NCBI GenBank assembly: GCA_048938295.1
Contig: JBHLMI010000004.1
Span: 90,001-122,000, forward strand
DNA length: 32,000 nucleotides
Source: Promethearchaeota archaeon
GTDB taxonomy: Archaea > Asgardarchaeota > Hermodarchaeia > Hermodarchaeales > Hermodarchaeaceae
Reading direction: 5' to 3'
The position numbers and the translations under genes were made by a program. Within the stretch, counting starts at the first letter, position 1, and each line of letters starts with the position of its first letter. Below, piece after piece: positions 64 through 27,115 of the stretch. The notes under the pieces were generated by a model. That model ran no database searches and was not told the DNA's origin. It saw nothing but the letters and a program-made list of their open reading frames with translations.

Positions 64-792
64 TCACACCTCAATAGAGATTTTCAGACCATCAACGGTG
101 TAAGGGTACGATTCATATGTTTTGGGATTGTATCGCCCACCCGCTTTTTTAACACGTATCAGCCGTTGATTATTTTCTCGATTCAGTTCAACAACAATCT
201 GAGTGGTGTGTTCAATTGCTGCAAGGAACTCTTTATTATGAGCGTGTCTATTGATCGTCCAATAGGCCAATGTCTTGTATGCGTATAGTGCGGGGCAGAT
301 ATGTCCAAAAAGGCTCCGAGCATTCTCCTGCCCCCACAAGATTTCCATTGCTGTGAGACTATTTATCACAAGGCGGGTTTCATCACCGATAAACTCCCTT
401 TCGATGCGTCCAAAAAAGTGGTGAAACCTTTCAACTTCTCGTGACATGGGGACTTTGCGAATCCAAGATGGAGATTTGTCGTAAAAATCAGTAAAAACTA
501 GTTCCCCGCGACCTCCTGATTCTGAAAAACAATCTAATACTAAGAGATGGTTCTCCCAACCAGAAGGAAGGGAACTAATTAAGGGTTTTAGAAATAGTAA
601 CAAAGCTTGTGGCGGATATATGAAGTCCAGATAGATTACTTGCTTCTTTTCTTCAATTCCTTGTCGTAAGAAGTTTTGTAGGAATTCGTTGACGAAGGTT
701 CCGGTTTCATATTCCCAAACGACGTTTTCTCCAAGGATAAGTCCTTCACCAAGAATTTCATCGAATTTTGGAATGCCTGTTGAACTACGCAT
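64..792 (-). CDS. KaiC/RAD55-family ATPase-like protein, probably catalytically inactive
   Basis: N-terminus STGIPKFDEILGEGL matches the KaiC/RAD55 start motif. The Walker A region reads EYETGTFVNEF (no GKT/S) and Walker B reads LVINS (N for D). TATA-like TTTATATT on the minus strand at 814-821. Confidence 0.75.
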   Translation of the reverse strand: MRSSTGIPKFDEILGEGLILGENVVWEYETGTFVNEFLQNFLRQGIEEKKQVIYLDFIYPPQALLLFLKPLISSLPSGWENHLLVLDCFSESGGRGELVFTDFYDKSPSWIRKVPMSREVERFHHFFGRIEREFIGDETRLVINSLTAMEILWGQENARSLFGHICPALYAYKTLAYWTINRHAHNKEFLAAIEHTTQIVVELNRENNQRLIRVKKAGGRYNPKTYESYPYTVDGLKISIEV

Positions 793-813
793 GAGTTCTC
801 AACACATTCAATG

Positions 814-821
814 AATATAAA
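814..821 (-). promoter_or_regulatory. TATA box of the RAD55-like gene (probably leaderless transcript)
   Basis: TTTATATT on the minus strand, 22-29 nt upstream of the ATG at 792. Confidence 0.55.
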
Positions 822-851
822 CCGTGAATTAAATGTTTGATTGTTGTTTGA

Positions 852-897
852 TGTACATCCATGTACAAAGTGAACATAAGCTTTGAATAGTTGAACA
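852..897. promoter_or_regulatory. Putative operator array TG(T/A)ACA x4 upstream of gdh
   Basis: TGTACA 852-857, TGTACA 862-867, TGAACA 871-876, TGAACA 892-897. The last three share the 9/21 spacing seen at 2756-2791. Confidence 0.6.
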
Positions 898-927
898 CTA
901 TATTCTAACTTAACCAGGTGAAGTCAC

Positions 928-2706
928 ATGCTTAACCTGGTTGAATTAACACCAATTGAATTGGGCTTGCAGAAGTTAATGGTCGACTTCTTCGCTGATA
1001 AGCCCGAGTATACAGCCGGACTGGATCGATTTACATCCGCTCATTATGCCTTAATGACGGCATTATCTGAAAATTACAAGGTTCCCTTTGCGACAACATC
1101 AATGGTTTTCGAACAACTTGCCATGAAGATTCGTCGGGCTGAATATGTGAATGTTGAATGTCCTGATGAGTCATTAGGAAATGGTTGCCTAACCCGTCAA
1201 GAACTTCAAATTCTGGGTGCCATGTTTGATTATTTTGCTGAACAACCCTCACATGCTGAGGCCAGCCTTCTTACAAATCGTCGTGAAGTCTTCATAGATT
1301 ACTTCAAATGGATTCACGGTGGCAATATTGAAGAAATCTCGGTCTGCTGCGGCCAAGTGATTGATCGATTACAGAGCGCAGTTTCTGCCACAATTCAAAC
1401 CCTTGATTCAGTGACACCCACTCCTAATCCATATGAAGCGGCTCTTGAGCAACTGGATCTCGCTGCCGAAAAATTGGGTTTAGACCCAGCCACTCATGAG
1501 GTTTTGCGTCATCCACAGAGAATTCTCATCGTAAATATTCCAGTTCACATGGACGATGGAACAGTTCGTGTTTTCACTGGATATCGTTCCCAGTACAATG
1601 ATGCACTGGGACCTACGAAAGGGGGGATTCGATATCATCCTGATACAACACTCGATGAAGTGATTGCCTTATCGGCGTGGATGACCTTCAAAACTGCTGT
1701 CGTGGGCTTACCTCTGGGTGGCGGTAAAGGCGGGATACGGTGTAATCCCAAAGAAATGTCATTGGGCGAGCTTGAACGTTTAACCCGGGGATATACCAGA
1801 GAACTGGTTCGATTTATCGGCCCACAGACAGACGTCCCTGCCCCTGACGTGTATACGGATGCACAGATAATGACATGGATAATGGACGAATATGCTGAAT
1901 GCACAGGTCTTTATTGTCCGGGTGTGGTTACAGGAAAACCTGTGGGGATTGGTGGCTCGAAAGGTCGAGAGGAAGCAACCTCACTAGGATTAGTCTTCAC
2001 AGTGATTGAAGCAGTTCAAGAACTGGGAATCCCCCTTAACGAGACCCGAGTAGTTGTCCAAGGTTTTGGAAACGTTGGCTTTAACGCGGCTCAAATTCTA
2101 AATGAGCGAGGCTGTAAAATTATTGCTGTTTCTGATTCTCAGGGAGGAATATTCAATTCCGACGGGCTAGACCCTGAGCAGGTGAAAGAACACAAGAAAC
2201 TGTCCGGTTCAGTGATTGGCTACAAAGACGCTATTCCGATCAGTAATCATGATATTTTGGAACTTGATTGTGATATCCTGATTCCAGCTGCTTTAGAAAA
2301 CGTCATTACGGCTGAAAACGCCTCTAGAATCAAAGCGAAGATTATTGCTGAGGGAGCAAATGGCCCCACAACGCCTGAAGCCGATGTAATCCTACACCAA
2401 CAGAACGTCTTCTTAATCCCTGATATTCTTGCTAATGCTGGAGGCGTTACAGTCAGCTACTTCGAAATGGTCCAGAATCAAATCAATTACTTCTGGACTA
2501 TAGAAGAAGTTCATAGCAAGCTCAAACAAATCATGCAAACTGCATTTCACGATGTGCAGGTGCTTTCAAAGGAACATGATGTTCCCATGCGTATTGCCGC
2601 CTATATGCTTGCCTTGAGCCGTATCAGCTATGCAATGCAGATGAGAAAACGTTCATCTACTAAAGAACGTCTTACACAGCCTAAACAAAGAATCTTGAAA
2701 ACCTAA
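928..2706 (+). CDS. gdhA: Glu/Leu/Phe/Val dehydrogenase (glutamate dehydrogenase) with ~165-aa N-terminal extension
   Basis: Core from about residue 166: TKGGIRYHP, MTFK, GGGKGG, VPAPD, QGFGNVG (Rossmann), EGANGP, ANAGGVTVSYFE. The glutamate-binding lysines are retained. Confidence 0.93.
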   Translation: MLNLVELTPIELGLQKLMVDFFADKPEYTAGLDRFTSAHYALMTALSENYKVPFATTSMVFEQLAMKIRRAEYVNVECPDESLGNGCLTRQELQILGAMFDYFAEQPSHAEASLLTNRREVFIDYFKWIHGGNIEEISVCCGQVIDRLQSAVSATIQTLDSVTPTPNPYEAALEQLDLAAEKLGLDPATHEVLRHPQRILIVNIPVHMDDGTVRVFTGYRSQYNDALGPTKGGIRYHPDTTLDEVIALSAWMTFKTAVVGLPLGGGKGGIRCNPKEMSLGELERLTRGYTRELVRFIGPQTDVPAPDVYTDAQIMTWIMDEYAECTGLYCPGVVTGKPVGIGGSKGREEATSLGLVFTVIEAVQELGIPLNETRVVVQGFGNVGFNAAQILNERGCKIIAVSDSQGGIFNSDGLDPEQVKEHKKLSGSVIGYKDAIPISNHDILELDCDILIPAALENVITAENASRIKAKIIAEGANGPTTPEADVILHQQNVFLIPDILANAGGVTVSYFEMVQNQINYFWTIEEVHSKLKQIMQTAFHDVQVLSKEHDVPMRIAAYMLALSRISYAMQMRKRSSTKERLTQPKQRILKT

Positions 2707-2743
2707 AAGGCAGTCAATCACTGCCTTTATCTTTCTTTTTTTT
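2706..2743 (+). terminator. Hairpin plus T-tract terminator after gdhA
   Basis: AAAGGCAGT-caatc-ACTGCCTTT perfect 9-bp stem, followed by atctttctttttttt. Confidence 0.75.
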
Positions 2744-2755
2744 CTGATTCCATGG

Positions 2756-2791
2756 TGTACATAATGTACAAGATTAATAAACGAGTGTACA
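2756..2791. promoter_or_regulatory. Putative operator array TGTACA x3 flanking the TATA box of the RHH regulator gene
   Basis: TGTACA at 2756, 2765 and 2786, with the TATA-like ATTAATAA (2773-2780) between boxes 2 and 3. Confidence 0.65.
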
Positions 2792-2815
2792 CCGATTGAA
2801 ATTGAGGGAACATCG

Positions 2816-4747
2816 TTGTCGGTGCATATCCACACAACCATCCCCAAAAAAACTGGAGCAATTTTAGATGAATTAGCAGGAACGTATGGGACTAAAAGTC
2901 GTGTTATTGAAACGGCTTTGGAGACGTTACTACGCGTTGATAAGGTAGGGTCCTGCGATGATTGCCAATTAAAGGCCCAAATCGAAGAAGAGATCAAACT
3001 CCGTGAATCCATAGAGCTAGCCTCGATTCGTCGAGACTTGCTGGATGAGCTTCTAAAAGTTGCACTAGCAGACAAAACATTTGAAGAATTCATTCAATGG
3101 CAACAAAATGAGGTACAGAATACAATAGAACTAATTCAGAATACAATCCATTGGAAACCCCCCACCCAATTTCATGAATTTCTTGCAGTGATTGACCAAA
3201 TTAGTAGGACAACAAAGGCGTTTGAAATTGCTTCTCACCGCGAAACCGATAACACCATCGTGTTACGCCCCTTGGTCTTTCTTAGATTACCCCAATTGGT
3301 TGCTTTACAACTCACGATTATACTTGAAGGAATTGGCAGTCATTTTGATCTTCGAATTATGCGTAAAGAAATCATTATCAAAATGCTTCGAAGAGATTTA
3401 TCAACTATACGACACACTGACCCCATGCAACTCGTTCTTCAAAGCCTGCAGGAGAAGTTAACCACCATTCGACCATTAATCTTTAAGGAACAACTTGCGC
3501 TAGTTGGACCAGCATTCTTGAAATGGGCGACGAAGAACCTCGAAGACTCTGTTACGGATTTGGGAACAGCCATAGAAGATATCCAGTTATTTTTGAAACC
3601 CACTGAACTATCTGATGTACCCCAAGAATTCATGCAAGGATTACTCGAAGCTGTTCAAGGAATGAATTGGATTTCGCAATACAAAATTAAAACAGAATCC
3701 AACAATCAATGCCACATCACCTTTCAAGCAACCTCACCTCCCATCGCAAATATCACTACAGTAAGCCTTGCCATAATTTTAGCAACTCGTGGATGGAAAC
3801 TCATCCGGCACTCAACTGAATACAATAATGGCTCACTAATCGTCGAATTAGCAGGAGAAGGGTCTCAGAAAATTTTAGACCAACTGAGTGATTTGAATCT
3901 TTATGGTGTGGTAAATGAACAGTTCCTTGATTCCATTCCAGTCCCCCGGGAATTATACGAAACCTTTGCTATTAAAATATATGACAGTGATCGGCGACGA
4001 TTTGAAGAAATCTATAGAAACATGGGCTTCCGAGTCGCAAATGCAATTCGTATGCTGAGCAACAATGATGATTCGCGCACACTGCAACTCATTCAAATGT
4101 TTATCGAAAAGAACGTTCATCAATCTCAACCCAATGCTGACGTTCGCTTTGTTGATGATGAAAATTTCTCTATTGTCTTCAAGAAAATGAATGTGGTGAT
4201 ATTAGCCAGCCAACGATTAATCATTGGAGCGATGCTTGAAGCACTGGGGTATCAGGTCACATTCACAGAGTTTCAAAACCTACTGAATGTTGTGATGAAG
4301 AAAATTGACAAGCCCTTTCTGAGCCCCCTTCATCGAAGAGAAGTCGTTCAGATGGTGAGTGACGCTATTGCCGCGGATTCAGCGAAAAACGCCCTTAACC
4401 AAGTAAAACCGACCTTAGATGATCTGTTCCCCCTGGAATACCCCTGGACGATTCATGAAATTGGAGATCGGCTCCTAGAAATGTATCGTGAGTTGGGAAT
4501 ACAGGTAGAAGTCGAGTACTTCGAAGGCGGATTTACCCTCAAATATCGCACATGCCCTTATTACAAACTAGTGAAGAATGATCAAAAGACTTGGCTCTGT
4601 ACCTTCCGTAAAAAAGCCATCGAGTACATTCTATCACGAGTTACAAAGACCGGAAAAGGACGGATTAGGGTAATTAAATCGCTTATCCAAGACGGCACAC
4701 ATCCTTGCGAATATGCAGTTTTCCTAGAGGAATTTCTAGCAACATAA
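2816..4747 (+). CDS. Putative one-component regulator: N-terminal ribbon-helix-helix, CxxC, tandem V4R/methanogen-output-like domains
   Basis: HIHTTI-PKKTGAILDELAG-TYG-TKSRVIETALETL fits the RHH strand-helix-helix pattern, followed by SCDDC. The C-terminal TCPYY..LC..HPCEY Cys triad is V4R/MetOD-like. TTG start with GAGGGA upstream. Confidence 0.6.
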   Translation: MSVHIHTTIPKKTGAILDELAGTYGTKSRVIETALETLLRVDKVGSCDDCQLKAQIEEEIKLRESIELASIRRDLLDELLKVALADKTFEEFIQWQQNEVQNTIELIQNTIHWKPPTQFHEFLAVIDQISRTTKAFEIASHRETDNTIVLRPLVFLRLPQLVALQLTIILEGIGSHFDLRIMRKEIIIKMLRRDLSTIRHTDPMQLVLQSLQEKLTTIRPLIFKEQLALVGPAFLKWATKNLEDSVTDLGTAIEDIQLFLKPTELSDVPQEFMQGLLEAVQGMNWISQYKIKTESNNQCHITFQATSPPIANITTVSLAIILATRGWKLIRHSTEYNNGSLIVELAGEGSQKILDQLSDLNLYGVVNEQFLDSIPVPRELYETFAIKIYDSDRRRFEEIYRNMGFRVANAIRMLSNNDDSRTLQLIQMFIEKNVHQSQPNADVRFVDDENFSIVFKKMNVVILASQRLIIGAMLEALGYQVTFTEFQNLLNVVMKKIDKPFLSPLHRREVVQMVSDAIAADSAKNALNQVKPTLDDLFPLEYPWTIHEIGDRLLEMYRELGIQVEVEYFEGGFTLKYRTCPYYKLVKNDQKTWLCTFRKKAIEYILSRVTKTGKGRIRVIKSLIQDGTHPCEYAVFLEEFLAT

Positions 4748-4849
4748 TTGGAGAAGAGAAAGCATTGTGTTTTAAATTCAATTGTATAAACAAGGCCTGT
4801 ATAACCTTGGGAGGGTTTCATAGACTGAAGGAATTAAGGAGGATTTGTA

Positions 4850-7663
4850 TTGGTAACAACCAATTTGGATCACATATTTAATCCTAAGAATATTGCCGTC
4901 ATTGGAGCTAGCGAAGAGGAGGGATCAGTGGGACATATTCTGATGCGCAATTTGGCGATGAATGGATTTGGTGAAAAGGTCTTTCCTGTGAATATTCGTC
5001 GCACAGAAGTAATGGGCATTAAGGCTTATCCGACGGTAGGAGAAATCTCACAGCCTATTGACTTAGCGATCATTGCGACTCCAGCAAAAACTGTGCCCGA
5101 GATTGTTGAAGAATGTGGAAAAAAAGGAATTAGGGGAATAATAATCATCTCAGCTGGGTTCAAGGAAATTGGCTCTGAGGGACTTGCACTCGAGAAGGAA
5201 TTAATTGAGTTAAAAAAGAAGTACAATCTTCGAATAATCGGACCCAACTGTTTTGGTATTATTCGTCCGAGTATCCAATTAAATGCAACCTTTGCAGAAG
5301 CGATGCCAAAGGCTGGGAATATTGCATTCATCTCTCAGAGTGGAGCCTTAGGTTCAGCTATCATTGATTGGGCACTTGGTCAAAATCTGGGATTCAGTAA
5401 TTTTGTTTCAGTTGGTTCGATGATTGATGTGGATTTTGGGGATTTAATCGATTATTTTGGAACTGATCCCCAAACGCGAAGTATAATCCTGTACATCGAG
5501 GGCATATCCGATGCGAGGAAGTTTATGAGCGCTGCCCGTCACTTTGCGAAAACTAAACCCATTATTGTGGTAAAAGCAGGTCGGTTTAGCGAAAGTGCCC
5601 AGGCAGCTGCCTCACACACCGGCTCACTGACAGGGTCAGATCTGGTTTACGATGCAGCTTTCAAACGGGCAGGTATTGTACGTATCGAAGAAATTTCGGA
5701 TCTATTTAATGCGGCAGAAACATTGGGAATGCAACCATTACCAGAAGGCCCACGTTTAGCAATCGTCACAAATGCGGGGGGCCCAGGCGTGATGGCAGCA
5801 GATGCTTTACTGCAAAAGAGAGGAAAACTTGCCCAACTATCAGAAACCACAATAAAAAAATTGAACAAGATTCTGCCACCATTTTGGAGCCAAGGAAATC
5901 CTATCGATATTTTAGGCGACGCCGATGCCCAACGCTACCGCGAAGCGATGAGTATATGCCTAGCTGATAAAAACGTTGATGGAATCCTGCTTATTTACAC
6001 CCCACAAGCGATTGCTGCCGCTGAAACTATTGCACAGAATATCGTTTCAGCTTGTGACGCCCGCGGAGGATGTGAAAAAACCATATTGACCTCATTTATG
6101 GGCGGAAATAAAGTCGAAAAAGCTAACCAGATTTTCACAGAAAACGGATACCCTACATATTGGACTCCCGAACACGCTGTTGCAACTTACATGTATATGT
6201 ACCAATACAAACGAAATCTTGAGTTATTATATGAAACTCCTGAAGAACTCCCCATTGAGAGCGCGCCTCCAAAACGTCCCGTTATGGTGCTTTTACGAAA
6301 TGCAGCTAAGGAGAAGCGTGAAATCCTTACTGAAGTGGAAGCCAAAAAGCTTCTAGAATTTTATAATATTCCTGTGGTAAAAACCCGAATCGCGAAATCA
6401 GTGGATGAAGCCGCTGCAGCTGCAGCCACAATAGGATATCCGGTCGTCTTGAAGATTTACTCACCCGATATCACACACAAATCTGATGCCGGTGGAGTAA
6501 AACTCAATCTACGTGATGATAACGAAGTGCGCAATGCTTACAATCTCATTATCGAAGCAGCTAAAGCTTACAAACCAAAGGCTAAGATTCAAGGCGTGAC
6601 GGTCCAGGAAATGATTGAACCCACAGGAACGGAAGTTATTCTGGGCGCAAACCGCGACCCTCTCTTTGGACCCGTCATACTCTTTGGAATGGGAGGCGTA
6701 GGCGTCGAATTTTTCCATGATGTATCACTTGGTTTTCCTCCTCTCAATCAAACTCTTGCACGACGAATCATGGAAGACACCCGAGTATATGAGGTTCTCG
6801 TCAAAGGACACCGACAGACCATCCCGGCCAATCTCAAATTATTAGAAGAACTCATAGTTCGCTTCTCTCAAATGATTGTCGATTTTCCCGAAATCAAAGA
6901 GATAGACATCAATCCACTTCTTGTCGATGACAAACAAGCCATTGCATTAGATGCTCGCGTCGTACTCGATTTATCACGAATAGAAAAAAAATCAGACACC
7001 CCACAGGAACTAATAATAAGTCCTTATCCAAAACGGTATGAACAGATTTGGCGCATGCGAGATGGACGTACCGTCTTATTCCGCCCAATCAAGCCTGAAG
7101 ACGAACCACTTTGGTTAGAAATGTTTCAAAACTTTTCTGAAGAATCGATTCGCTACCGGTTTTTTCAAATCATTAAAGATACGCCCCACGAAGTTAGGAT
7201 ACGATACACAAATATCGATTATGACCGGGAAATCGCCATCGTCCCCATATTACACGAAAAAGGAAAAGATAGAATCTTAGGTGTGGTACGATTAATAGAA
7301 GAACCAGATAGAAAACGGGGAGAAATCGCCTTTATCATTGCTGATCCATGGCAAGGTCTTGGACTCGGCTCCAAGTTAATTGACTTTATGATTGAAATCG
7401 CAATTGACAGAGGATTGGAAGAAATCTATGGAATGATGCTCCCCGATAATTATCGAGCACATAAAATAATGGAAAAAATGGGATTTGCGCTCGAACGGAC
7501 AAAAGATGGGCTGGTCAAAGCCACACTCGATTTAATGGAAGAAAGACGCTGGCGAGCACCACGAGAATTTCGCCCCAGCTCTGATGCTGCAATTGAAGTG
7601 GAAGAACCGAAGAAGCATGTTCAAGCATCAAAGGAACGAAGGAAAAAAGCCAAAAAGTCCTGA
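4850..7663 (+). CDS. ADP-forming acetate/acyl-CoA ligase (alpha+beta) fused to a C-terminal GNAT acetyltransferase (Pat/PatZ-type architecture)
   Basis: CoA-binding AVIGAS, IGPNCFG, SQSGA, ASHTGS (catalytic His), NAGGPG, ATP-grasp THKSDAGGV, DINPL; GNAT with GEIAFIIADPWQGLGLG. SD AAGGAGGA at 4836-4843, TTG start. Confidence 0.9.
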   Translation: MVTTNLDHIFNPKNIAVIGASEEEGSVGHILMRNLAMNGFGEKVFPVNIRRTEVMGIKAYPTVGEISQPIDLAIIATPAKTVPEIVEECGKKGIRGIIIISAGFKEIGSEGLALEKELIELKKKYNLRIIGPNCFGIIRPSIQLNATFAEAMPKAGNIAFISQSGALGSAIIDWALGQNLGFSNFVSVGSMIDVDFGDLIDYFGTDPQTRSIILYIEGISDARKFMSAARHFAKTKPIIVVKAGRFSESAQAAASHTGSLTGSDLVYDAAFKRAGIVRIEEISDLFNAAETLGMQPLPEGPRLAIVTNAGGPGVMAADALLQKRGKLAQLSETTIKKLNKILPPFWSQGNPIDILGDADAQRYREAMSICLADKNVDGILLIYTPQAIAAAETIAQNIVSACDARGGCEKTILTSFMGGNKVEKANQIFTENGYPTYWTPEHAVATYMYMYQYKRNLELLYETPEELPIESAPPKRPVMVLLRNAAKEKREILTEVEAKKLLEFYNIPVVKTRIAKSVDEAAAAAATIGYPVVLKIYSPDITHKSDAGGVKLNLRDDNEVRNAYNLIIEAAKAYKPKAKIQGVTVQEMIEPTGTEVILGANRDPLFGPVILFGMGGVGVEFFHDVSLGFPPLNQTLARRIMEDTRVYEVLVKGHRQTIPANLKLLEELIVRFSQMIVDFPEIKEIDINPLLVDDKQAIALDARVVLDLSRIEKKSDTPQELIISPYPKRYEQIWRMRDGRTVLFRPIKPEDEPLWLEMFQNFSEESIRYRFFQIIKDTPHEVRIRYTNIDYDREIAIVPILHEKGKDRILGVVRLIEEPDRKRGEIAFIIADPWQGLGLGSKLIDFMIEIAIDRGLEEIYGMMLPDNYRAHKIMEKMGFALERTKDGLVKATLDLMEERRWRAPREFRPSSDAAIEVEEPKKHVQASKERRKKAKKS

Positions 7664-7692
7664 ATCAAGTGAACCATAGGTGTGAATTCCGT

Positions 7693-8229
7693 ATGACAAA
7701 TTTATGGCGTATGTTACCGCCAGGTTCGAATCCACCAAAACGGGTTAATGTAATCGTGGAAGTCCCCAAGGGGGAGACGAACAAATACGAATACGATCAT
7801 GAATTAGGGTTCTTTCGTCTGGACAGAGTACTGTATGGAGCACTCTACTATCCGGCTGACTACGGGATTATTCCACAAACCTGGTATATTGATAACGATC
7901 CGTTAGATATCATGGTACTAACATCCAAACCCACATTTACTGGTTGCGTTCTGGAAGCCAGACCTATTGGCATGCTCACTATGGAAGATGAAAAAGGTGA
8001 AGATGATAAAATCATCAGTGTGCCAATATCTGATCCACGGTTTGAAGAGCTGACTGATTGTTCCTTGATGGCCAAGCATCTTCGTGTCGAGATTGCTGAC
8101 TTTTTTTTAAATTATAAAAATCTTGAACCACGGAAATGGGTTAAGGTCAAAGAATGGAAAGAGTCCCCTGAAGCAGAGAAAATCATCAATCTATCAATCA
8201 AGATGTATCAGGAGAGATCAGCTGACTAG
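7693..8229 (+). CDS. ppa: Inorganic pyrophosphatase (family I)
   Basis: EVPKGETNKYEYD, YPADYG, DNDPLD, DEKGEDDKII, FFLNYK motifs. Start taken at ATG 7693 (the ORF track opens at GTG 7669). Confidence 0.95.
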   Translation: MTNLWRMLPPGSNPPKRVNVIVEVPKGETNKYEYDHELGFFRLDRVLYGALYYPADYGIIPQTWYIDNDPLDIMVLTSKPTFTGCVLEARPIGMLTMEDEKGEDDKIISVPISDPRFEELTDCSLMAKHLRVEIADFFLNYKNLEPRKWVKVKEWKESPEAEKIINLSIKMYQERSAD

Positions 8230-8830
8230 CGGATTTACCAGAAACCCTATTCTTTCGATGTTGCGCAAAAAACATCCGAATACTCGGAACTAGAAAAGGA
8301 GTCTTTCGTTTATAATCCAGATATTTTTCGCCAAACCGGCGGATTAAACTGGGTTCCTCACGTCTCTTGATTATGATGATTTGAATCCCGAGCACGATAG
8401 CAGGAATTAACAAACTCATTCCAAGGGATCTGAATAATAATCCCATGCCCAGTGGAAGCAGTGTATACCCAAAGGTCATAGGATTCCGTGTGTATGTAAA
8501 AATCCCGGTGGTCACGAGAGTTGATGATTGAGAAGCTTTTGTTGCTTCGCCCCAGGGAAGCCCCTTACCCACCTTGTGCAATTGCCGAGTCGCCTTGATG
8601 CCCACTGCTGCACCTCCAACCATCACAATTACACCGGATATAATGTTGAAGGGGAAAGGAGGAAAAGGAGGAAGCGACAGGATAAGGTCAGTCCAGCTTC
8701 CGAGTAGAAAGGTTCCAAACGGCACCAACAGAAAGATGAGCAAATAGGGTATGAAATAACGTAACTGAATTTTTGGCTGAGCCTTCGTATCCGCCTGTAT
8801 TTCACTGTCAGGCATCACAATCTCCTTCAA
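8198..8830 (-). CDS. Isoprenylcysteine carboxylmethyltransferase/PEMT-family membrane methyltransferase
   Basis: Several TM segments; LVTTGIFTYTRNPM and EEPSLIRRFGEKYLDYK motifs typical of ICMT/PEMT. Confidence 0.85.
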   Translation of the reverse strand: MKEIVMPDSEIQADTKAQPKIQLRYFIPYLLIFLLVPFGTFLLGSWTDLILSLPPFPPFPFNIISGVIVMVGGAAVGIKATRQLHKVGKGLPWGEATKASQSSTLVTTGIFTYTRNPMTFGYTLLPLGMGLLFRSLGMSLLIPAIVLGIQIIIIKRREEPSLIRRFGEKYLDYKRKTPFLVPSIRMFFAQHRKNRVSGKSASQLISPDTS

Positions 8831-8834
8831 ATAA

Positions 8835-8911
8835 TGGCGGGCCCGCGGGGATTCGAACCCCGGATTTTCGGCTTAGAGGGCCGATGCCTTGTCCAGCTTG
8901 GCCACGGGCCC
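8835..8911 (-). tRNA. tRNA-Arg(UCU), intronless, CCA encoded
   Basis: Reverse complement gives GGGCCCG acceptor / CGGGCCC-G-CCA, anticodon arm TCGGC-CCTCTAA-GCCGA and T-arm CGGGG-TTCGAAT-CCCCG. Confidence 0.95.
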
Positions 8912-9020
8912 AGATGGTGTGAATGAGGATTTCGGGATATTTGCAAGAAACAGCGGGTGGAGCTGGATATATTTTTATCTGTACATCGCATTGTGAGTGT
9001 AGTATAGCGGGTGATTATCG

Positions 9021-9236
9021 ATGGAAACTGATATCTATTCCACAGAGATGGCGTTACGTAGTGGCATTTCTGAGATTCATGTGACTGAAACCAAAACCGT
9101 ACGGGCGCTTTTAAAGGAATTGGGTTTGCTTTATCGACACCATGTAGTTTTAGTCGACGGAAAACGAGCCTATCTAGACGACGAAGTCGCTGAAGGGCAA
9201 CGCGTTATTGTCCTCCCAATCATCGCAGGTGGATAG
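9021..9236 (+). CDS. Ubiquitin-like beta-grasp protein (SAMP/MoaD/ThiS family)
   Basis: 71 aa, VLVDG..LDDE..EG..VIVLPIIAGG with C-terminal diglycine. Confidence 0.88.
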   Translation: METDIYSTEMALRSGISEIHVTETKTVRALLKELGLLYRHHVVLVDGKRAYLDDEVAEGQRVIVLPIIAGG

Positions 9237-10925: not shown

Positions 10926-12281
10926 ATGCCACCAGAAGAACCAGCAGGTTATTTGGGGAAAGCCCAAAAAGTCCTAGAGAAATCGAAGGTCCAAATCGGT
11001 GACCGTATATCTATTCAGACCTTGGACAATATCTTCGAGGGTATTGTGATTCCCCGCGCAGAGATTGGTGCCGATGATCAGCACATTGTCTTAAAACTTG
11101 ATTCGGGTTATAACGTTGGTATCCACGTCGATAGAATCCAGCAGCTCAAACGCCTTAAAACAGGGAAACCCGTCGAACCCGAACTTCCAGCGATATCTCG
11201 GAAAATCAAGAAAGGATTGCCCTGGGTGAGTATCCTTAGCACAGGAGGCACCATAGCCAGTCGAGTCGACTATCACACTGGAGCTGTCAATCCTGCATTA
11301 TCTGCTGATGACCTCTATACAGTCGTTCCTGAACTAGGTGACCTGGCCAACATTCGCGCTGATGTGCTCTTTAGCGAGTTCAGTGAGAACCTCACACCAA
11401 AGCACTGGACGACCATAGCCAAACAAACGGCAAAACACCTCGAGGAATCCGAAGGAGTAGTAATTGCGCACGGAACCGATACCATGGGGTACACTGCGGC
11501 AGCGCTCAGCTTTGCCCTCCAGAATCTCCCGCGACCTGTTATTCTAACTGGCTCACAACGTTCATCAGACCGACCCTCCTCAGATGCGGCACTGAACCTA
11601 ATGGGAGCCGTGATAACAGCTTCTCACGCCCCATTCGCTGAAGTCGTCTTGGCTATGCACCGATCACCGGATGATACAAAGATTGCTCTTCATCCTGGAA
11701 CCCAAGTTCGCAAATGCCATACCAGCCGGCGTGACGCCTTCTTGACCATTAACGCTGACCTTCTTGGCGAGGTCTATAATGGTAAAGTACACATGCTGGT
11801 TGATGATTCAGCTTATCGACATCGCAATTCGAAACGGAAACTTACCCTCCAACCAGAATTTGATTCCAAAGTGGCTTTGCTTAAAACCACTCCAGGAATG
11901 ACAGGAGATCTCATAGAGTCTCTCATCGATCGTGGATATCATGGAATTGTGCTTGAAGGAACGGGACTGGGTCACGCCCCTGCCTCTTTACTAAAAGCCA
12001 TAGAAAGGACACGAGAGGAGCAGATACCAGTTATCATGACCTCACAATGCATTTGGGGACGAGTCCAGATGCGTGTGTACCGAACAGGCGTAGAATTAGT
12101 ACAACGTGGAGTGATTTCTGCCGAAGACATGATTGCTGAAACCGCTTATGTGAAGTTGATGTGGGTACTTGCCAAAACTCGAGATATTACCGAAGTGCAA
12201 ACACAAATGAGAGCTAACCTAGTTGGGGAAATCACGGAGTGTTCCAAACGTAGCCAATACGATGAGATGAGCCACCTATGA
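10926..12281 (+). CDS. gatD: Glutamyl-tRNA(Gln) amidotransferase subunit D
   Basis: KLDSGYNVG N-domain; asparaginase motifs TGGTIASRVD, HGTDTM, GSQRSSDRPSSD, HTSRRDAF. Confidence 0.97.
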   Translation: MPPEEPAGYLGKAQKVLEKSKVQIGDRISIQTLDNIFEGIVIPRAEIGADDQHIVLKLDSGYNVGIHVDRIQQLKRLKTGKPVEPELPAISRKIKKGLPWVSILSTGGTIASRVDYHTGAVNPALSADDLYTVVPELGDLANIRADVLFSEFSENLTPKHWTTIAKQTAKHLEESEGVVIAHGTDTMGYTAAALSFALQNLPRPVILTGSQRSSDRPSSDAALNLMGAVITASHAPFAEVVLAMHRSPDDTKIALHPGTQVRKCHTSRRDAFLTINADLLGEVYNGKVHMLVDDSAYRHRNSKRKLTLQPEFDSKVALLKTTPGMTGDLIESLIDRGYHGIVLEGTGLGHAPASLLKAIERTREEQIPVIMTSQCIWGRVQMRVYRTGVELVQRGVISAEDMIAETAYVKLMWVLAKTRDITEVQTQMRANLVGEITECSKRSQYDEMSHL

Positions 12282-14185
12282 CCAAGATCAACTACGAAAA
12301 AGTAGGAGCCCTCATTGGCATCGAAGTCCATCAACAACTCGATACCCGAACGAAGTTATTCTGCAGCTGCCCTACAGAAATCCGAGAGGACAACCCGGAT
12401 TTCACTTTTCTTAGACAGCTACGGCCCACACAAAGTGAACTTGGTGAAGTGGATCCAGCAGCGCTATTTGAATTTCAAAGAGGTCGAGTCCATATCTATG
12501 AATATTATGACGATTCAATCTGTTTGGTTGAACAGGACGAAGAACCGCCCCATCTTTTAGATGAAGAAGCGGTGGATTTTGCCCTCGAAATCTCATTGCT
12601 CATGAATTCGCACCCTGTTGACGAGATACAGGTCATGCGAAAGCTGGTAATTGATGGTTCTAATACAACAGGATTTCAGCGAAGTGTAGTGGTGGCATTC
12701 GGGGGCTCGATCGAGGTGAATGGATTCACAGTTCCAATTCAAACCATCGGAGTGGAAGAGGATGCCGCTCGAAAAATCCGTGAAGACGGCATCCAAACCT
12801 ATTGGCGGCTTGATCGACTTGGAATTCCGCTCATTGAAGTTGCAACCGCTCCAGTAATGAACACGCCCCAACAGGTTCTTGATACGGCCTTGCGTATAGG
12901 TCAGATCTTTCGGGTGACCGGGAAGGTCAAGCGTGGACTGGGTACTATTCGACAAGATATCAATGTCTCCGTGAAAGGAGGCGCCATCATTGAAATCAAG
13001 GGTGTGCAAAAACTCAATCTCATCGGGCAGGTTGTCGAATACGAGGTCCAACGACAGTTGGAGCTGCTCAAGATCCGCGATGAACTTAAAGAGAGGGGTG
13101 TTCGCAGTGTACAGATTAAGAGCATAATTCACGATGTTACTCCTCTTTTCGAACAAAGTAGTAGCAAGGTCATTAAGGCTGCATTAAAGCGGAAGGAAGG
13201 TGTTTATGCTCTTGTACTGCCAGAATTTGCTGGAATCGTTGGAAGAGAAGTACAGCCAGGACGACGGTTAGGCAGTGAACTGGCAGATTATGCCAAGTTC
13301 TGGGGAGGCGTACAAGGTTTATTTCACACGGATGAATTACCAAATTATGGCATCACTGCGGCTGAAGTGGCTGCATTGCGAAAATACTTGAAGGCTCAGG
13401 ATGCGGATGCGATTATCATTGTGGCGGCCACTGAGACGGCATCCAAGGACGCGTTGAAAGCCGTCGCTGAACGGGCACGTCAGGCCTTGAAGGGTGTCCC
13501 CGATGAGACGCGAGGACCACTTGCTGATGGAACCACCCGTTACTCGCGCCCACGGCCTGGTGCCGCTCGAATGTATCCTGAAACGGATGTAGCACCTGTC
13601 GCCGTAACACCAACGCGACTAGAACGAATCCGACAGGGGTTGCCAGAACTCCCCGAGGAGAAGCTACAGAAATTCAGAAAGGAATACCACATGAGTGACG
13701 AGTTGGCAGGGATTATGATTCGTTCCCTGCGTATTGACCTTTTCGAAAATATCATCACCGAATATCCAGAATTAGCCGTGACTGTAGCCGCAACCCTTGA
13801 AACGACGTGGCGGAACCTTGAACGTGAGGGAGTCGATGTTGAGGGAATTCCGGAAAAGCAAATTTTACTCCTCTTTAACCGACTGGCGGCCGAACGGTTC
13901 GCCAAAGAGGCCATCGAAGAGCTTCTAACCTGGTTGGCTCAGCATCCTGAAAAGACTGTAGATGATGCCGTTGCAGCTCTTGGACTGGGAGTTATTTCTC
14001 GCTCTGAGCTGAAAAGCATCATTGACCAAATTGTGAAAGCGAATGCAGCCATGGTGGCTGAGCGGGGGGAAAGAGCTGTTGGTCCATTGATGGGGTTGGT
14101 GATGAAAGAAGTTCGGGGCCGTGCAGATGGAAAGTTAGTAAATAAGCTTCTTCAGGATGTAGTGAAGACCCAGATGAAATCATGA
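12278..14185 (+). CDS. gatE: Glutamyl-tRNA(Gln) amidotransferase subunit E
   Basis: GIEVHQQL, KLFC, IDGSNTTGFQR, EEDAAR, DRLGIPLIE, GLGTIRQDINVS, RMYPETD; ATGA overlap with gatD. Confidence 0.97.
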   Translation: MTKINYEKVGALIGIEVHQQLDTRTKLFCSCPTEIREDNPDFTFLRQLRPTQSELGEVDPAALFEFQRGRVHIYEYYDDSICLVEQDEEPPHLLDEEAVDFALEISLLMNSHPVDEIQVMRKLVIDGSNTTGFQRSVVVAFGGSIEVNGFTVPIQTIGVEEDAARKIREDGIQTYWRLDRLGIPLIEVATAPVMNTPQQVLDTALRIGQIFRVTGKVKRGLGTIRQDINVSVKGGAIIEIKGVQKLNLIGQVVEYEVQRQLELLKIRDELKERGVRSVQIKSIIHDVTPLFEQSSSKVIKAALKRKEGVYALVLPEFAGIVGREVQPGRRLGSELADYAKFWGGVQGLFHTDELPNYGITAAEVAALRKYLKAQDADAIIIVAATETASKDALKAVAERARQALKGVPDETRGPLADGTTRYSRPRPGAARMYPETDVAPVAVTPTRLERIRQGLPELPEEKLQKFRKEYHMSDELAGIMIRSLRIDLFENIITEYPELAVTVAATLETTWRNLEREGVDVEGIPEKQILLLFNRLAAERFAKEAIEELLTWLAQHPEKTVDDAVAALGLGVISRSELKSIIDQIVKANAAMVAERGERAVGPLMGLVMKEVRGRADGKLVNKLLQDVVKTQMKS

Positions 14186-17391: not shown

Positions 17392-17425
17392 GTGAACTAC
17401 CATCGACTGAAGACGATGGCTTCTA
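17392..17425 (-). mobile_element. IS200/IS605 (IS1341-like) right end / 3' part of omegaRNA scaffold of TnpB-1
   Basis: Minus strand GAAG-CCATCG-TCTTCAGT-CGATGG-TAGTTCAC: subterminal hairpin followed by TTCAC, the typical right-end layout. Confidence 0.75.
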
Positions 17426-18460
17426 TGCAACTGCATAGTCAAGGGCCGGTTCACAGGCGGCCCCACACAATGGCATATAGCCAAGGTGTCTCTCGACTTT
17501 CCGAGCAATATTAATGGCACCATTAAGGTCCGCATTGTACTCCCCGCATTCTGGACATCGAAACCGTGCCTGAGTGGGACGCACTCCACGTCGACCACAC
17601 ACGTGACAGGTGACGCTGGTATAGGCCTCGTTCACCAAGACCACTGGGATACCCCGCATCATCGCTTTGTAGATGATCATGCGTGTCAGCCGATGATAGG
17701 GCATAGTGCCGATAATTCTCTGCAGCCGTTTGCCCTTCGTCGTAGTTGTCCGCCGGATACCGGTAAGGTCACCCATCGCAATCCATGCCATGGTCAGTTC
17801 AGCCAGCTCCACGATTTCCTTGCTTATCCGGTGGAGGACGGCGTCGACTCGCCGCTTCTCCCTGTCACGAAGGCGCTTGACAACCCGCGTCAGGCCACGT
17901 TCTTGCAACCGCCGGCGTAGCCATGCGTGATGCCGTCTAATCCTCCGGACCTCTCGTCCGAGAAACCTTGGTCGTGTTATACAGCTGTTTTGCAGCAGCA
18001 CCGTTGCTGCAATGATACGCTCGCCAAGATCCACGCCAAGCACAGATTTACCTCTGCGAAGAGGCGGGGCATTAAACGTGAACACCAAGTTCACGTAGAA
18101 CTTCCCCTGTTTACGAAGCAGTTTGCTCTCGCTCAGTTCAGCGTCTTTTGGAAACGCTCTATGAGGGAGTATGGGGATACGGAGTCCTCCCCGTTGCCCA
18201 TATACGCGGATTCGTAGGAACCAGAAGGTCTTTGCTTTGTGGAGGTCGATGAGGTCCTGCCGGAGAGAGAGGGGATACTCTTTCCCCGGTTTGGGTTGCT
18301 TGTAGTATCGTGCAGCCTGTTGACGGTTGGCGGAATAGAGCTTCACCCCTGTGTCTCCTTGAAGGAATCGTTGGAGGTTGTCATATTCTGCGTCCAAGAG
18401 AGCTCTTTTTCTCTTTGTGAGTCTGACCACGCCGCATTTGACGGCCAGCCGCATCTGCAT
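17423..18460 (-). CDS. tnpB: RNA-guided endonuclease TnpB with rearranged RuvC-II (solo, no TnpA)
   Basis: RuvC-I VLGVDLG; RuvC-II position IAMGDL (G for E) with alternative E in VNEAYTS; Zn finger CHVC/CPEC; RuvC-III NADLNGAINI. Confidence 0.92.
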   Translation of the reverse strand: MQMRLAVKCGVVRLTKRKRALLDAEYDNLQRFLQGDTGVKLYSANRQQAARYYKQPKPGKEYPLSLRQDLIDLHKAKTFWFLRIRVYGQRGGLRIPILPHRAFPKDAELSESKLLRKQGKFYVNLVFTFNAPPLRRGKSVLGVDLGERIIAATVLLQNSCITRPRFLGREVRRIRRHHAWLRRRLQERGLTRVVKRLRDREKRRVDAVLHRISKEIVELAELTMAWIAMGDLTGIRRTTTTKGKRLQRIIGTMPYHRLTRMIIYKAMMRGIPVVLVNEAYTSVTCHVCGRRGVRPTQARFRCPECGEYNADLNGAINIARKVERHLGYMPLCGAACEPALDYAVA

Positions 18461-20684: not shown

Positions 20685-20770
20685 CCGTTCCCCGAATCTA
20701 ACAAGAATTTAGGAAATTCTAAGTTCGGTTCCTGCTTCATCGACGGGCACTGCCCGAAGGCTGCAACCTC
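20685..20770 (-). mobile_element. IS607-like right end / omegaRNA region of TnpB-2
   Basis: Minus strand GCAGTGCCCGTCGATGAAGCAGGAACCGAAC...TTAGATTCGGGGAACGG, matching the IS607-type right-end pattern that ends in AACGG. Confidence 0.65.
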
Positions 20771-21944
20771 CCACCTCTAGACAGGCGTTTTGCGTCTCCG
20801 TGGAACTCACGGCGACAGCTACTAGATTATAACTTGCATTCAAATCTCTATCGATTTCCAATCCACAGTATTCGCATTTGAAGATCCGAGTTGAAAGCGA
20901 AAGTTCGCTTTTTGTAGTTCCGCATTTAGAACATCTTTTTGTTGATGGAAAAAATCTAGAAACAATAAAGATATCCGAGCCATACCATTCTGACTTGTAT
21001 TCCAATTGTTGCCGAATTTTGTTAAAGCATGCTTCAGTTACTGATTTCGCTATTGAATGACATTCCTGCATTCTTCTGACAGAAAGATTTTCAATTGCTA
21101 TCACTGACTTGGTTTTCGTCAAATACGTGGTAGCTTTATGAATAACATCTCCTCTGATATTAGCTATACGCGAATGCAACTCTTGTAACTGCAATACTAT
21201 TTTTCTTCTATTACTACTCCCTTTCCGTTTTCTTTCTAATGACCGTTGGGTACGTTTCAACTTACGTTCATATCTTGAAAGTACTTTTGGATTCTGAATA
21301 ATTGTTCCGTCAGATACCGTAGCAAGGTTTCTAACACCAAGATCCACACCTACAATGCTACCTTTATTCTTCGACACTTTGATTTCCTCTTTAACCTGGA
21401 GCGATACAAACCAACGTCCGGCTTTTTCTGACACAGTTGCAGAAAGAACATGGACTCTATCATCCATATGAGGTAAGTAATCTCGTTCCTTCAATCTAAG
21501 TAGTCCTAAGCGAGGTAATTGAATTGAACTGTGAAAAACACGGATGACTCCAGTTAATCTAAATGAGCCCCTCCCTCTTTTTCTTGATTTGAATTTTGGG
21601 AAACCAGGGTTTTCTTTTTTCTTAATTCGGCGAAAAAAATGACGAAAAGCATAATCGAGATTTCTTAAGGCTTCCTGAGGAGCACACTTTGAAACTTCAT
21701 ACATCCAAGGAAATTCAGTCTTTTTAAGTTGGTTTAACTCGCGATGCAAGTCCATTGCACTTGGCATTTTCCCAATTCGTTCGTATTCCTCTATCTTCCG
21801 TTGAAGGCCCCAATTGAAAGCAAAGCGGGCACAACCTACGTGTTTAATGCAAAGACACTTTTGGATGTTGTTTAATTCTAGTTCAGTTTTGTAGGCTCGA
21901 AAAATTGTCTTTCTTCCAGATTTGCCTAATTCAGATCCAGCCAT
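20709..21944 (-). CDS. tnpB: RNA-guided endonuclease TnpB, IS607-associated type (solo, no TnpA in window)
   Basis: HTH_OrfB-like RAYKTEL..GCARFAFNWGL; RuvC D (VGVDLG), E (IAIENL) and D (DRDLNAS) intact; Zn finger CSKC/CEYC. Visibly AT-richer than its flanks. Confidence 0.95.
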   Translation of the reverse strand: MAGSELGKSGRKTIFRAYKTELELNNIQKCLCIKHVGCARFAFNWGLQRKIEEYERIGKMPSAMDLHRELNQLKKTEFPWMYEVSKCAPQEALRNLDYAFRHFFRRIKKKENPGFPKFKSRKRGRGSFRLTGVIRVFHSSIQLPRLGLLRLKERDYLPHMDDRVHVLSATVSEKAGRWFVSLQVKEEIKVSKNKGSIVGVDLGVRNLATVSDGTIIQNPKVLSRYERKLKRTQRSLERKRKGSSNRRKIVLQLQELHSRIANIRGDVIHKATTYLTKTKSVIAIENLSVRRMQECHSIAKSVTEACFNKIRQQLEYKSEWYGSDIFIVSRFFPSTKRCSKCGTTKSELSLSTRIFKCEYCGLEIDRDLNASYNLVAVAVSSTETQNACLEVGGCSLRAVPVDEAGTELRIS

Positions 21945-25666: not shown

Positions 25667-26469
25667 TGATTGATCGCCGAGTGGCAGATTTTTTCCAATA
25701 TTGGCGTCAGCAATATCAATGGCCATTAAGACGAACAAGAGTCAATACCGAAAAGAAGATTCAAGAGTTCAAAGAAAACGCCCAGTTAGCAGTAGCATCA
25801 GGGAAGGACGAGAGATTAGCCAATACATTGATTCAGATTCACCGTTGGAAGACTCGCAATCAAGCTGGCATAACCGATGATTATGCCCGCCAGTTGGACA
25901 AAGCACCGAAACGCCTTAGAGAACTCCAGAAAGAACTACCCCTCACACTCAAAACACCAAATGAGATACTAAAAAAAGCTCTTGACTTATTGCGATTCTC
26001 CGATTGCAATCTACCAGTGTGTACAGCACAACTAAGCTTCCTCTCAGATCGGGTATTCCCAATCCTAGACCGCTTCTTAGCTCAATTCTTTAGCCGAAAA
26101 GTTCATCCCATGATTCTCAAATGGGCTGATTTTGACATTCAAAACGTTTTCGAAACTCTTGGCATAATCGACTTTGCACTCGAAGATGACGGACGAGGAA
26201 AAGGAGTACCCAGAATGGCAGTGTATACCGAAAAATTCTATCGCTATAATCGGAACCTGTTTGTAGACGAACTTATCCCACGGCTCCAAAATTTAGCAAG
26301 ACAACTGAGTGAAGCAGATATAACGTATGAAGGCATCGATCGGAACTTACACTATTTCACAAGTGTTGACCTACAAATGGCGATTTTTATCTTCGGCAAA
26401 AAGAATCCGCGACTATTCAGGCAGTTTTACAAAGTTCCTCCAATCCCAAGTCTGCCACCGCATCTTTAG
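25667..26469 (+). CDS. Hypothetical protein, possible HhH-type DNA glycosylase-like fold
   Basis: I..WK.R motif, LPVCTAQLSF..DRVFPILDR resembling the (G)xPTASAIL..P..YPIxD signature, and VDLQMAIF. ATG 25667 preferred. Confidence 0.45.
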
Positions 26470-26527
26470 CAAATTAAACAACTCAAATGCTAAAAAGGTA
26501 CATATTATCGATGGTGGAAGCAAAAAG

Positions 26528-27115
26528 ATGGAACGAATTGAAAGATATCGGCAACTAGCGAAATTCTCGCACTCAGGAGCAGTGAATCGACGCTATTTTG
26601 CTACCAATGCTTTTGATGGCACCTTAACAATTGTAGGTTTAATACTTGGAAGCTATTTTGCGGTCATACTCAATCCAATTGCTGTAGTGAGAGCAGGAAT
26701 CGGTGCTTGTATAGCCATGATGTTTTCAGGGTTTGCTGGAACCCTTTTTGCAGAGCGACTTGTTCAACGTGAACAGATACAGGAACTAGAAAAAGCTATG
26801 CTTCGTAAACTCGATGAATCGCTTCCCAGTAAAGCATCCACCTTTGTGATTATCTCTTCCGCATTAGTAGATGGAATTGCTCCACTTCTTACAGGGCTAT
26901 TCTGTCTTATTCCAATATTTGCTGCGGCCTTGGGATTAATAGTATGGAATCTAGCGGTATTCGTATCTTGTATTATTGGATTAACTATACTTTTCACTTT
27001 AGGGTTCTATATCGGAAAAGTTGCCCGAATGAATCCACTTGTTCAAGGTGTTCAAACACTTTTCATCGGGATTGGAACAGTAATTGCCATTATTCTAATA
27101 CAACTCGCATTATAG
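26528..27115 (+). CDS. VIT1/CCC1-family transporter (second paralog)
   Basis: RRYFATNAFDGTLT, GTLFAER, DGIAP, multiple TM helices. Start at ATG 26528. Confidence 0.85.
   Translation: MERIERYRQLAKFSHSGAVNRRYFATNAFDGTLTIVGLILGSYFAVILNPIAVVRAGIGACIAMMFSGFAGTLFAERLVQREQIQELEKAMLRKLDESLPSKASTFVIISSALVDGIAPLLTGLFCLIPIFAAALGLIVWNLAVFVSCIIGLTILFTLGFYIGKVARMNPLVQGVQTLFIGIGTVIAIILIQLAL

Follow-up and report, generated by a model that had tools for sequence, protein, structure and literature searches.

Five genes lie next to each other on a contig of a Promethearchaeota archaeon (GenBank JBHLMI010000004.1), and the question they raise is whether they work as one unit and, if so, which of them belong to it. 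The locus occupies positions 64-8229 of a window of 32,000 nucleotides (nt), the whole stretch of DNA analysed here (positions 90,001 to 122,000 of the contig). A 242-amino acid (aa) KaiC/RecA-fold pseudo-ATPase is encoded by g1 (64-792, minus strand), a 592-aa glutamate dehydrogenase (GDH) paralogue by g2 (928-2706, plus strand), and a 643-aa probable DNA-binding sensor by g3 (2816-4747, plus strand). They are followed by g4 (4850-7663, plus strand), whose 937-aa product joins an NDP-forming acyl-CoA synthetase, with its alpha and beta parts, to a GNAT domain, and by g5 (7669-8229, plus strand), a family I inorganic pyrophosphatase (PPase; PF00719, 192 bits) that starts 5-30 nt after g4, with an ATG at 7693 as the alternative start. 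A preliminary description had placed five contiguous genes in an Asgard host, and both points hold: all five are present, and the closest relative of the locus is a Hermodarchaeota metagenome-assembled genome (MAG) with 94% protein identity. It had also joined the five into one regulatory-metabolic hub of amino-acid catabolism, of which a conserved module centred on glutamate survives, but with three genes (g1-g2-g3) as its unit instead of five. In the reading that appears somewhat better than evenly supported, these three form a cassette with g3 as a ligand or redox sensor which, by binding to boxes in the promoters, controls its own gene as well as g1 and g2.

The trio is delineated first of all by synteny across eighty genome loci, supplemented by loci from contig look-ups, from Bathyarchaeia and from Asgard MAGs labelled Hermod or Promethearchaeota. 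The GDH gene lies directly upstream of g3 in 66 of 67 testable loci, the exception (L066) being rearranged with the two genes still adjacent, and g1 is found at most 3.2 kb from g3 in every testable locus (63/63). The trio is kept in all Bathyarchaeia and Hermod-type Asgard loci examined, and within these loci the N-terminal extension of g2, g1 and g3 were never found apart. In Bathyarchaeia the cassette is one of four genes, as g1 is immediately followed, on its own strand, by a 535-aa glutamate-synthase-domain (PF01645) gene in about 40 loci (e.g., L001:3516-5123, minus strand). Its products are 80-85% identical among Bathyarchaeia; the orthologue of the present genome, 61% identical, is unlinked and lies on another contig (G000:C41:99822-101393).

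With distant paralogues as the root, the g3 tree has the Asgard clade nested inside Bathyarchaeia (SH-aLRT 99), which suggests that the trio moved between phyla as a block, a suggestion drawn from the g3 tree only, with the root on long branches. The same nesting is what would be expected if the three genes were linked only as a horizontally transferred block whose products do not cooperate. Such a purely passive linkage is very improbable, given that gene order, orientation and operator layout stay constant in more than 60 genomes although both flanks vary, and that extension, g1 and g3 always occur together.

The second line of evidence for the three-gene cassette comes from its promoters. 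Between the divergent g1 and g2 lies an operator-like array (852-897) with TGTACA at 852 and 862 and TGAACA at 871 and 892 around TATA-like elements, and a second array (2756-2791) precedes g3, with TGTACA at 2756, 2765 and 2786 on either side of the TATA-like ATTAATAAA (2773-2781). A terminator-like hairpin with a T-run (2706-2745, plus strand) directly 3' of the g2 stop points to a promoter of g3's own, separate from g2; T-runs occur at the matching place after g2 in related loci. TGTACA reaches 11.8 per kb in the g1/g2 intergenic region (62 loci) and 12.1 per kb in the g3 promoter (66 loci) against 0.42 per kb overall, an enrichment of about 28-fold, and the order of the boxes and their 9-10-bp spacing are conserved across these 62 and 66 loci. 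Asgard g3 promoters have identical box spacing, and those of Bathyarchaeia carry TGTACA ... TGAACA beside TATA. Two tandem TGTACA pairs occur in the window where 0.01 would be expected, and throughout the 2.52-Mb genome such pairs are confined to the g1-g3 locus; a relaxed tandem pattern yields five sites genome-wide, three of them at this locus. The sole other tandem in the window, TGAACA-N3-TGAACA at 27040-27054 (minus strand), lies inside an open reading frame (ORF) of the VIT1 family (26327-27115) and is probably due to chance, because a reversed-pattern control gives similar genome-wide counts.

The promoter boxes also bear on the place of g4 and g5. In the broader, five-gene account, g3 would supply transcriptional control, g1 and the g2 extension allosteric control and the GNAT part of g4 control by acetylation, with the PPase added, together steering amino-acid catabolism. 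The linkage by shared promoter boxes that had been proposed for all five holds for the g1/g2 and g3 promoters but not for g4 and g5: no TG(T/A)ACA box lies upstream of either gene here, and in nine related Asgard loci the sole box at this place is an isolated TGTACA in L010. Gene neighbourhood speaks in both directions. The genes g3, g4 and g5 adjoin one another in the same orientation, here as in 9/10 Asgard loci. In a more distant Promethearchaeota-labelled MAG (L089, 4536-9027), whose g3 is 55% identical, g4 is 1.9 kb off, separated from g3 by two genes for M14 carboxypeptidases and one that is MazE/AbrB-like. All five trio-carrying Bathyarchaeia genomes tested likewise encode a full-length g4 orthologue with 51-67% identity, though at a distance of hundreds of kb from the trio. 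Counted over the sample, g4 lies at most 3 kb downstream of g3 in 9/10 of the Asgard and 0/56 of the Bathyarchaeia loci, with g5 after it in the same Asgard clade only. As all g4-adjacent loci form one clade of the g3 tree with 100% support, the adjacency represents a single event, and co-conservation, postulated for the five genes, extends to g1-g2-g3 in all loci but, for g4 and g5, to one Asgard clade.

The enzymology of g4 and g5 leads in the same two directions. The g4 product aligns over its full length (aa 6-897) with a bacterial "Protein acetyltransferase" (PDB 9it0, E 2.4e-182), and the QGLGLG acetyl-CoA motif of its GNAT part, read directly, is intact. The fusion, which had been listed among the unusual features, is indeed present but is the known ACD-like plus GNAT architecture of bacterial Pat/PatZ (YfiQ; PDB 9it0, 9isq). 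Unlike 9it0 in the alignment, g4 retains SHTGS, the phosphohistidine motif of true ADP-forming acyl-CoA synthetases (ACD), and it passes the NCBIfam cut-off for the acetate-CoA ligase alpha subunit (573.8 vs 567.15 bits); it may therefore be bifunctional, combining ACD and acetyltransferase activities. An ADP-forming ACD produces no pyrophosphate, and the PPase consequently has no obvious role in the pathway. Control by all five genes together is, on balance, quite unlikely, and both the acetylation layer and the parallel to peptide fermentation in Thermococcales, as put forward in the preliminary description, are conjectural. The g4-g5 pair would rather form a unit transcribed by itself, brought next to the trio once, in the Hermod-type Asgard lineage, and the Pat-like acetyltransferase is thus set outside the cassette, which corrects the five-gene idea.

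Within the three-gene cassette, g2 provides the clearest metabolic assignment. Its GDH core (aa 166-573) matches PF02812 (193 bits) and PF00208 (273 bits), its best PDB match is the Thermotoga GDH 2tmg in an end-to-end alignment (E 6e-143), and the active-site lysine signature GGGKGG is present, with LPLGGGKGGIRCNP, read directly from the sequence, fitting the family signature. The core shares 59% identity with a canonical GDH of 420 aa whose gene lies on a different contig of the same genome, and g2 scores 557 bits against the 750 bits set as the cut-off of the NCBIfam archaeal GdhA equivalog. As the canonical enzyme is encoded elsewhere, g2 is, judging from its sequence, a diverged and specialised paralogue, catalytically intact by signature.

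What distinguishes g2 is its N-terminal extension (928-1422, plus strand; aa 1-165), made of two homologous units of about 75 aa (approximately aa 7-77 and 88-157). The duplication announced in the preliminary description is borne out by profile-profile comparison of the two halves (hhalign probability 98.3%, E 1.9e-14, 71 columns), and it is visible only in this way, as BLASTP between the halves gave no match. All 67 loci have the extension (67/67), and the homologue search found it solely fused to GDH. The model of the extension (pLDDT 80) has no confident fold match: Foldseek against the PDB gave E > 0.4, VIA gave Z <= 4.2 with mostly winged-helix/HTH rows, AFDB clusters gave E >= 0.03, and an Atlas feature search returned no usable match. 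A predicted complex of g1 with the extension scored 0.01, which amounts to no verdict and was used as evidence neither way. No RNA data set is recorded as carrying the whole stretch. Short contigs from three metatranscriptome runs, each contributing a small share, resemble parts of g2 at 90-96%, the extension (1002-1142) among them. As one of the runs is probably DNA and the others may contain DNA carry-over, they do not count as evidence of expression.

The product of g1 belongs to the KaiC family by several measures. It passes the Pfam KaiC model (PF06745, 27.8 bits, cut-off 26.6), scores 29.4 bits with PF05625 (PAXNEB/Elp4) and bears the N-terminal STGIxxLD motif and fold signature of KaiC/Elp4 (PAXNEB) RecA-fold proteins, and a profile of 24 homologues matches the CI domain of KaiC PDB chains (E 1.7e-7). 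In 24/24 aligned homologues the GTGKT of KaiC is replaced by GTFVN or GTFAR, with loss of the Walker A lysine, and FEE by FIY, with loss of the catalytic glutamate. By motif position only, the Walker B aspartate has become asparagine, RLVINS standing where the intact KaiC-like paralogue of the same genome has RIVIDS. The stretch LLVLD (aa 83-87) was also considered as Walker B and dropped, as comparison with the paralogue favours RLVINS. The proposed degenerate ATPase is thereby confirmed, and the losses read as a family trait rather than decay, because every homologue has them. As a single 242-aa domain with the fold signature of KaiC and Elp4, in which the Walker A Lys/Thr, the catalytic glutamate and, by position, the Walker B aspartate are replaced, g1 resembles the non-catalytic Elp4/5/6 type, and it is most likely a non-catalytic partner of GDH or of g3.

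The putative regulator g3 matches no Pfam or NCBIfam family, and phmmer against PDB sequences found nothing either, yet more than 449 full-length homologues exist, with 46-57% identity between Asgard and Bathyarchaeia members. Its N-terminus is invariant (SVHxHTTI, with H4, H6, T7 and T8), and is followed by predicted helices (aa 11-24 and 27-40) joined by YGTKS and by an invariant GSCxxC that contains the CxxC pair (C47, C50). This is the strand-helix-helix pattern of CopG-type ribbon-helix-helix (RHH) proteins, confined to aa 1-42, although the strand itself is absent from the monomer model. Beyond the CxxC, residues C580, C595, H629 and C631 are invariant. The AF2 model (mean pLDDT 70) folds the rest of the protein into four alpha-beta modules of helices and beta-hairpins (approximately aa 85-200, 232-350, 378-500 and 505-643). 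Module 3 is close to Bet3/TPC6 of TRAPP (Z 8.6-9.1, 118-126 residues aligned, rmsd 3.7-4.2) and to the V4R-containing sensor domains of PoxR/MopR/DmpR (Z about 8), and modules 1, 2 and 4 score lower (Z 6.8-7.4). Over aa 270-637 there is a match (E 3.9e-8) to an AFDB cluster with the name "V4R domain protein", and the nearest Pfam relative is MetOD1 (aa 555-633, E 0.015, below its cut-off). The earlier label of RHH plus multiple V4R domains is therefore to be read with qualification: pattern and secondary structure speak for an RHH head and folds for V4R/Bet3/H-NOX-like modules, but Pfam V4R is not matched, RHH hidden Markov models (HMMs) respond weakly (RHH_3 in 4/28 members with a best E of 0.011, RHH_1 at E 0.09, CopG 1b01 at E 0.65 over aa 1-41) and the modules are dissimilar. 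At the level of pattern and fold, the assignment may stand.

These ambiguities leave room for a different role, in which Bet3/TRAPP-like modules would make g3 a subunit for scaffolding or sensing, complexed with the GDH hexamer and g1, while another regulator binds the boxes. Its best fold matches, with Trs33 alongside Bet3 and TPC6, are indeed protein-protein assembly subunits, its conservation over the whole length about equals that of the accompanying enzymes, and the weak sequence evidence for RHH would pose no difficulty. Direct contact between a GDH and a transcriptional regulator also has a precedent, as Bacillus GDHs act in this way on GltC (PMC6794564). An invariant strand-helix-turn-helix N-terminus would, however, have no obvious role in a pure scaffold, and boxes in the promoter of g3 itself are typical of autoregulated factors.

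More distant relatives of g3 add a further argument against the scaffold. Proteins of 493-519 aa with 22-25% identity resemble g3 in their RHH-like head and CxxC and have three of the modules, and in the 493-aa member (22% identical) the N-terminal strand is nearly the same as in g3. Paired TGTGCAT boxes lie in the promoter of this paralogue and in that of the next operon, in two independent contigs (L086:4160-4185 and 6135-6161; L087:4826-4851 and 6801-6827), with 6 observed against 1.3 expected. The 493-aa paralogue adjoins a response regulator/histidine kinase pair and a Hdr-like FAD/Fe-S operon. The repetition of this box logic in an unrelated gene context favours g3-type proteins as local, autoregulated DNA-binding factors, and the role of a non-binding scaffold thus seems unlikely. 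At another locus with a distant paralogue (L085) a clear box pair was not found in the upstream region; a 218-aa unannotated gene beside that paralogue, considered as a counterpart of g1, proved not to be g1-like.

It should be noted that several observations weigh against a sensing, DNA-binding g3 at the head of a three-gene unit. For aa 18-45 a DNA-ligase helix-hairpin-helix stretch (E 0.001) outscores the RHH matches (E 0.011-0.65). DNA binding by g3 is putative and sequence-derived. Pfam V4R (PF02830) matches neither the whole protein nor its modules, and pairwise profiles detect no sequence similarity of the four modules to one another (probability <3%). Identity of about 50% over the whole 640 aa between phyla is an unusual constraint for a sensor-regulator and would fit a structural subunit too. 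The TATA elements and the promoters that contain them are predictions from sequence. Finally, the proximity of g4 across the Asgard clade, L089 included, makes a looser functional tie possible in Asgards.

With these reservations, the favoured three-gene reading can be phrased as a mechanism. Being a large one-component transcription factor, g3 would read the tandem TG(T/A)ACA boxes through an N-terminal RHH dimer, the boxes lying on either side of the TATA elements in its own promoter and in the one from which g1 and g2 diverge. The CxxC and the four V4R/Bet3-like modules, the last with its Cys/His cluster, would sense a small molecule or the redox state. In this way g3 could control the specialised second GDH with its duplicated, presumably regulatory N-terminal domain, along with g1 and itself. 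Repression is more likely than activation, because boxes lie on both sides of TATA. That g3 binds the boxes is inferred in this scheme, as are the sense of its regulation, its ligand and any contact between the proteins.

A bolder version, which is speculative and rather unlikely in its entirety, would make the trio a physical trigger-enzyme machine. The extension of the GDH hexamer would dock g1 and/or g3, and how far g3 occupies the TGTACA operators would depend directly on the GDH flux (glutamate, 2-oxoglutarate, NAD(P)H), read alongside a metal or Fe-S centre bound by cysteines of g3. The trio would then be an archaeal counterpart of RocG-GltC assembled from different parts, moved as a block between phyla and placed beside a bifunctional ACD-acetyltransferase in Asgards.

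The surroundings of the cassette are more variable. In the Asgard loci and the present genome, a PyrK/NfnA-like gene (FAD_binding_6, NAD_binding_1 and DHODB_Fe-S_bind, with a 2Fe-2S centre) follows g1; here it is on the minus strand, 34 nt to the left of g1 (L093:9160-10029, the same as G000:C33:89160-90029). Still farther out, genes encode SCP2, a 2-hydroxyacid dehydrogenase, an FGGY kinase, a class II aldolase and a tungsten AOR. On the other side of the locus, a tRNA gene (8838-8911, minus strand, Rfam 64.8 bits) is flanked by a PEMT-like gene at 8198-8830 and, at 9021-9236, a short ThiS-like ORF, with a single TGTACA at 8980 near it. GatD (10926-12281) and GatE (12278-14185), the archaeal Glu-tRNA(Gln) amidotransferase, overlap by 4 nt and lie a few kb from the GDH cassette; GatD is syntenic in the Hodarchaeota-labelled locus L003. 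Further along, two IS605-type OrfB/TnpB-like genes with a Cas12f1-like TNB domain (17423-18460 and 20709-21944, both minus strand) lie in a stretch with GC raised to 0.51-0.55, against about 0.44 elsewhere.

Peptides and amino acids are thought to sustain Bathyarchaeia and Asgard archaea, which abound in sediments and are for the most part uncultured. A literature search for this gene cluster found no specific description. The cassette offers a candidate regulator-operator pair, a new GDH accessory domain and a conserved pseudo-enzyme partner. Each of these is strongly conserved in both phyla and is either missing from Pfam or undescribed in the literature searched.

Among known systems, RHH repressors of the NikR/CopG/MetJ type are proteins of 45-150 aa, with a fused C-terminal sensing domain in NikR. 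The strand-helix-helix head of g3 and its short tandem or palindromic boxes about one helical turn apart recall these proteins, whereas its RHH HMM similarity stays below threshold and its 643 aa make it far longer. In overall logic g3 is closer to MsvR of methanogens, an autoregulated factor that joins a DNA-binding domain to a V4R domain with three conserved cysteines and binds repeated boxes in its own divergent promoter (PMC3729527); read in the same way, g3 would be an archaeal autoregulated factor with a DNA-binding head, a Cys-bearing V4R-like part and repeated boxes. MsvR, however, is a helix-turn-helix protein of about 250 aa with a single V4R that Pfam recognises, whereas g3 joins an RHH-like head and a CxxC to four modules, and its cysteines are spaced differently.

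At the level of the whole cassette, the nearest parallel is the RocG/GudB-GltC system of Bacillus subtilis, in which GDH acts as a trigger enzyme (PMC6794564). Here too, as far as the genes alone reveal, a catabolic GDH paralogue comes with a transcription factor of its own at the glutamate/2-oxoglutarate node, and the glutamate-synthase-domain gene of the Bathyarchaeia cassette extends the likeness to that node. The parts nevertheless differ: GltC is of the LysR type and RocG lacks an extra domain, whereas the archaeal cassette would combine an RHH-like/V4R-like regulator, a duplicated GDH domain in putative contact with it and, as a fixed member, a dead KaiC-like protein.

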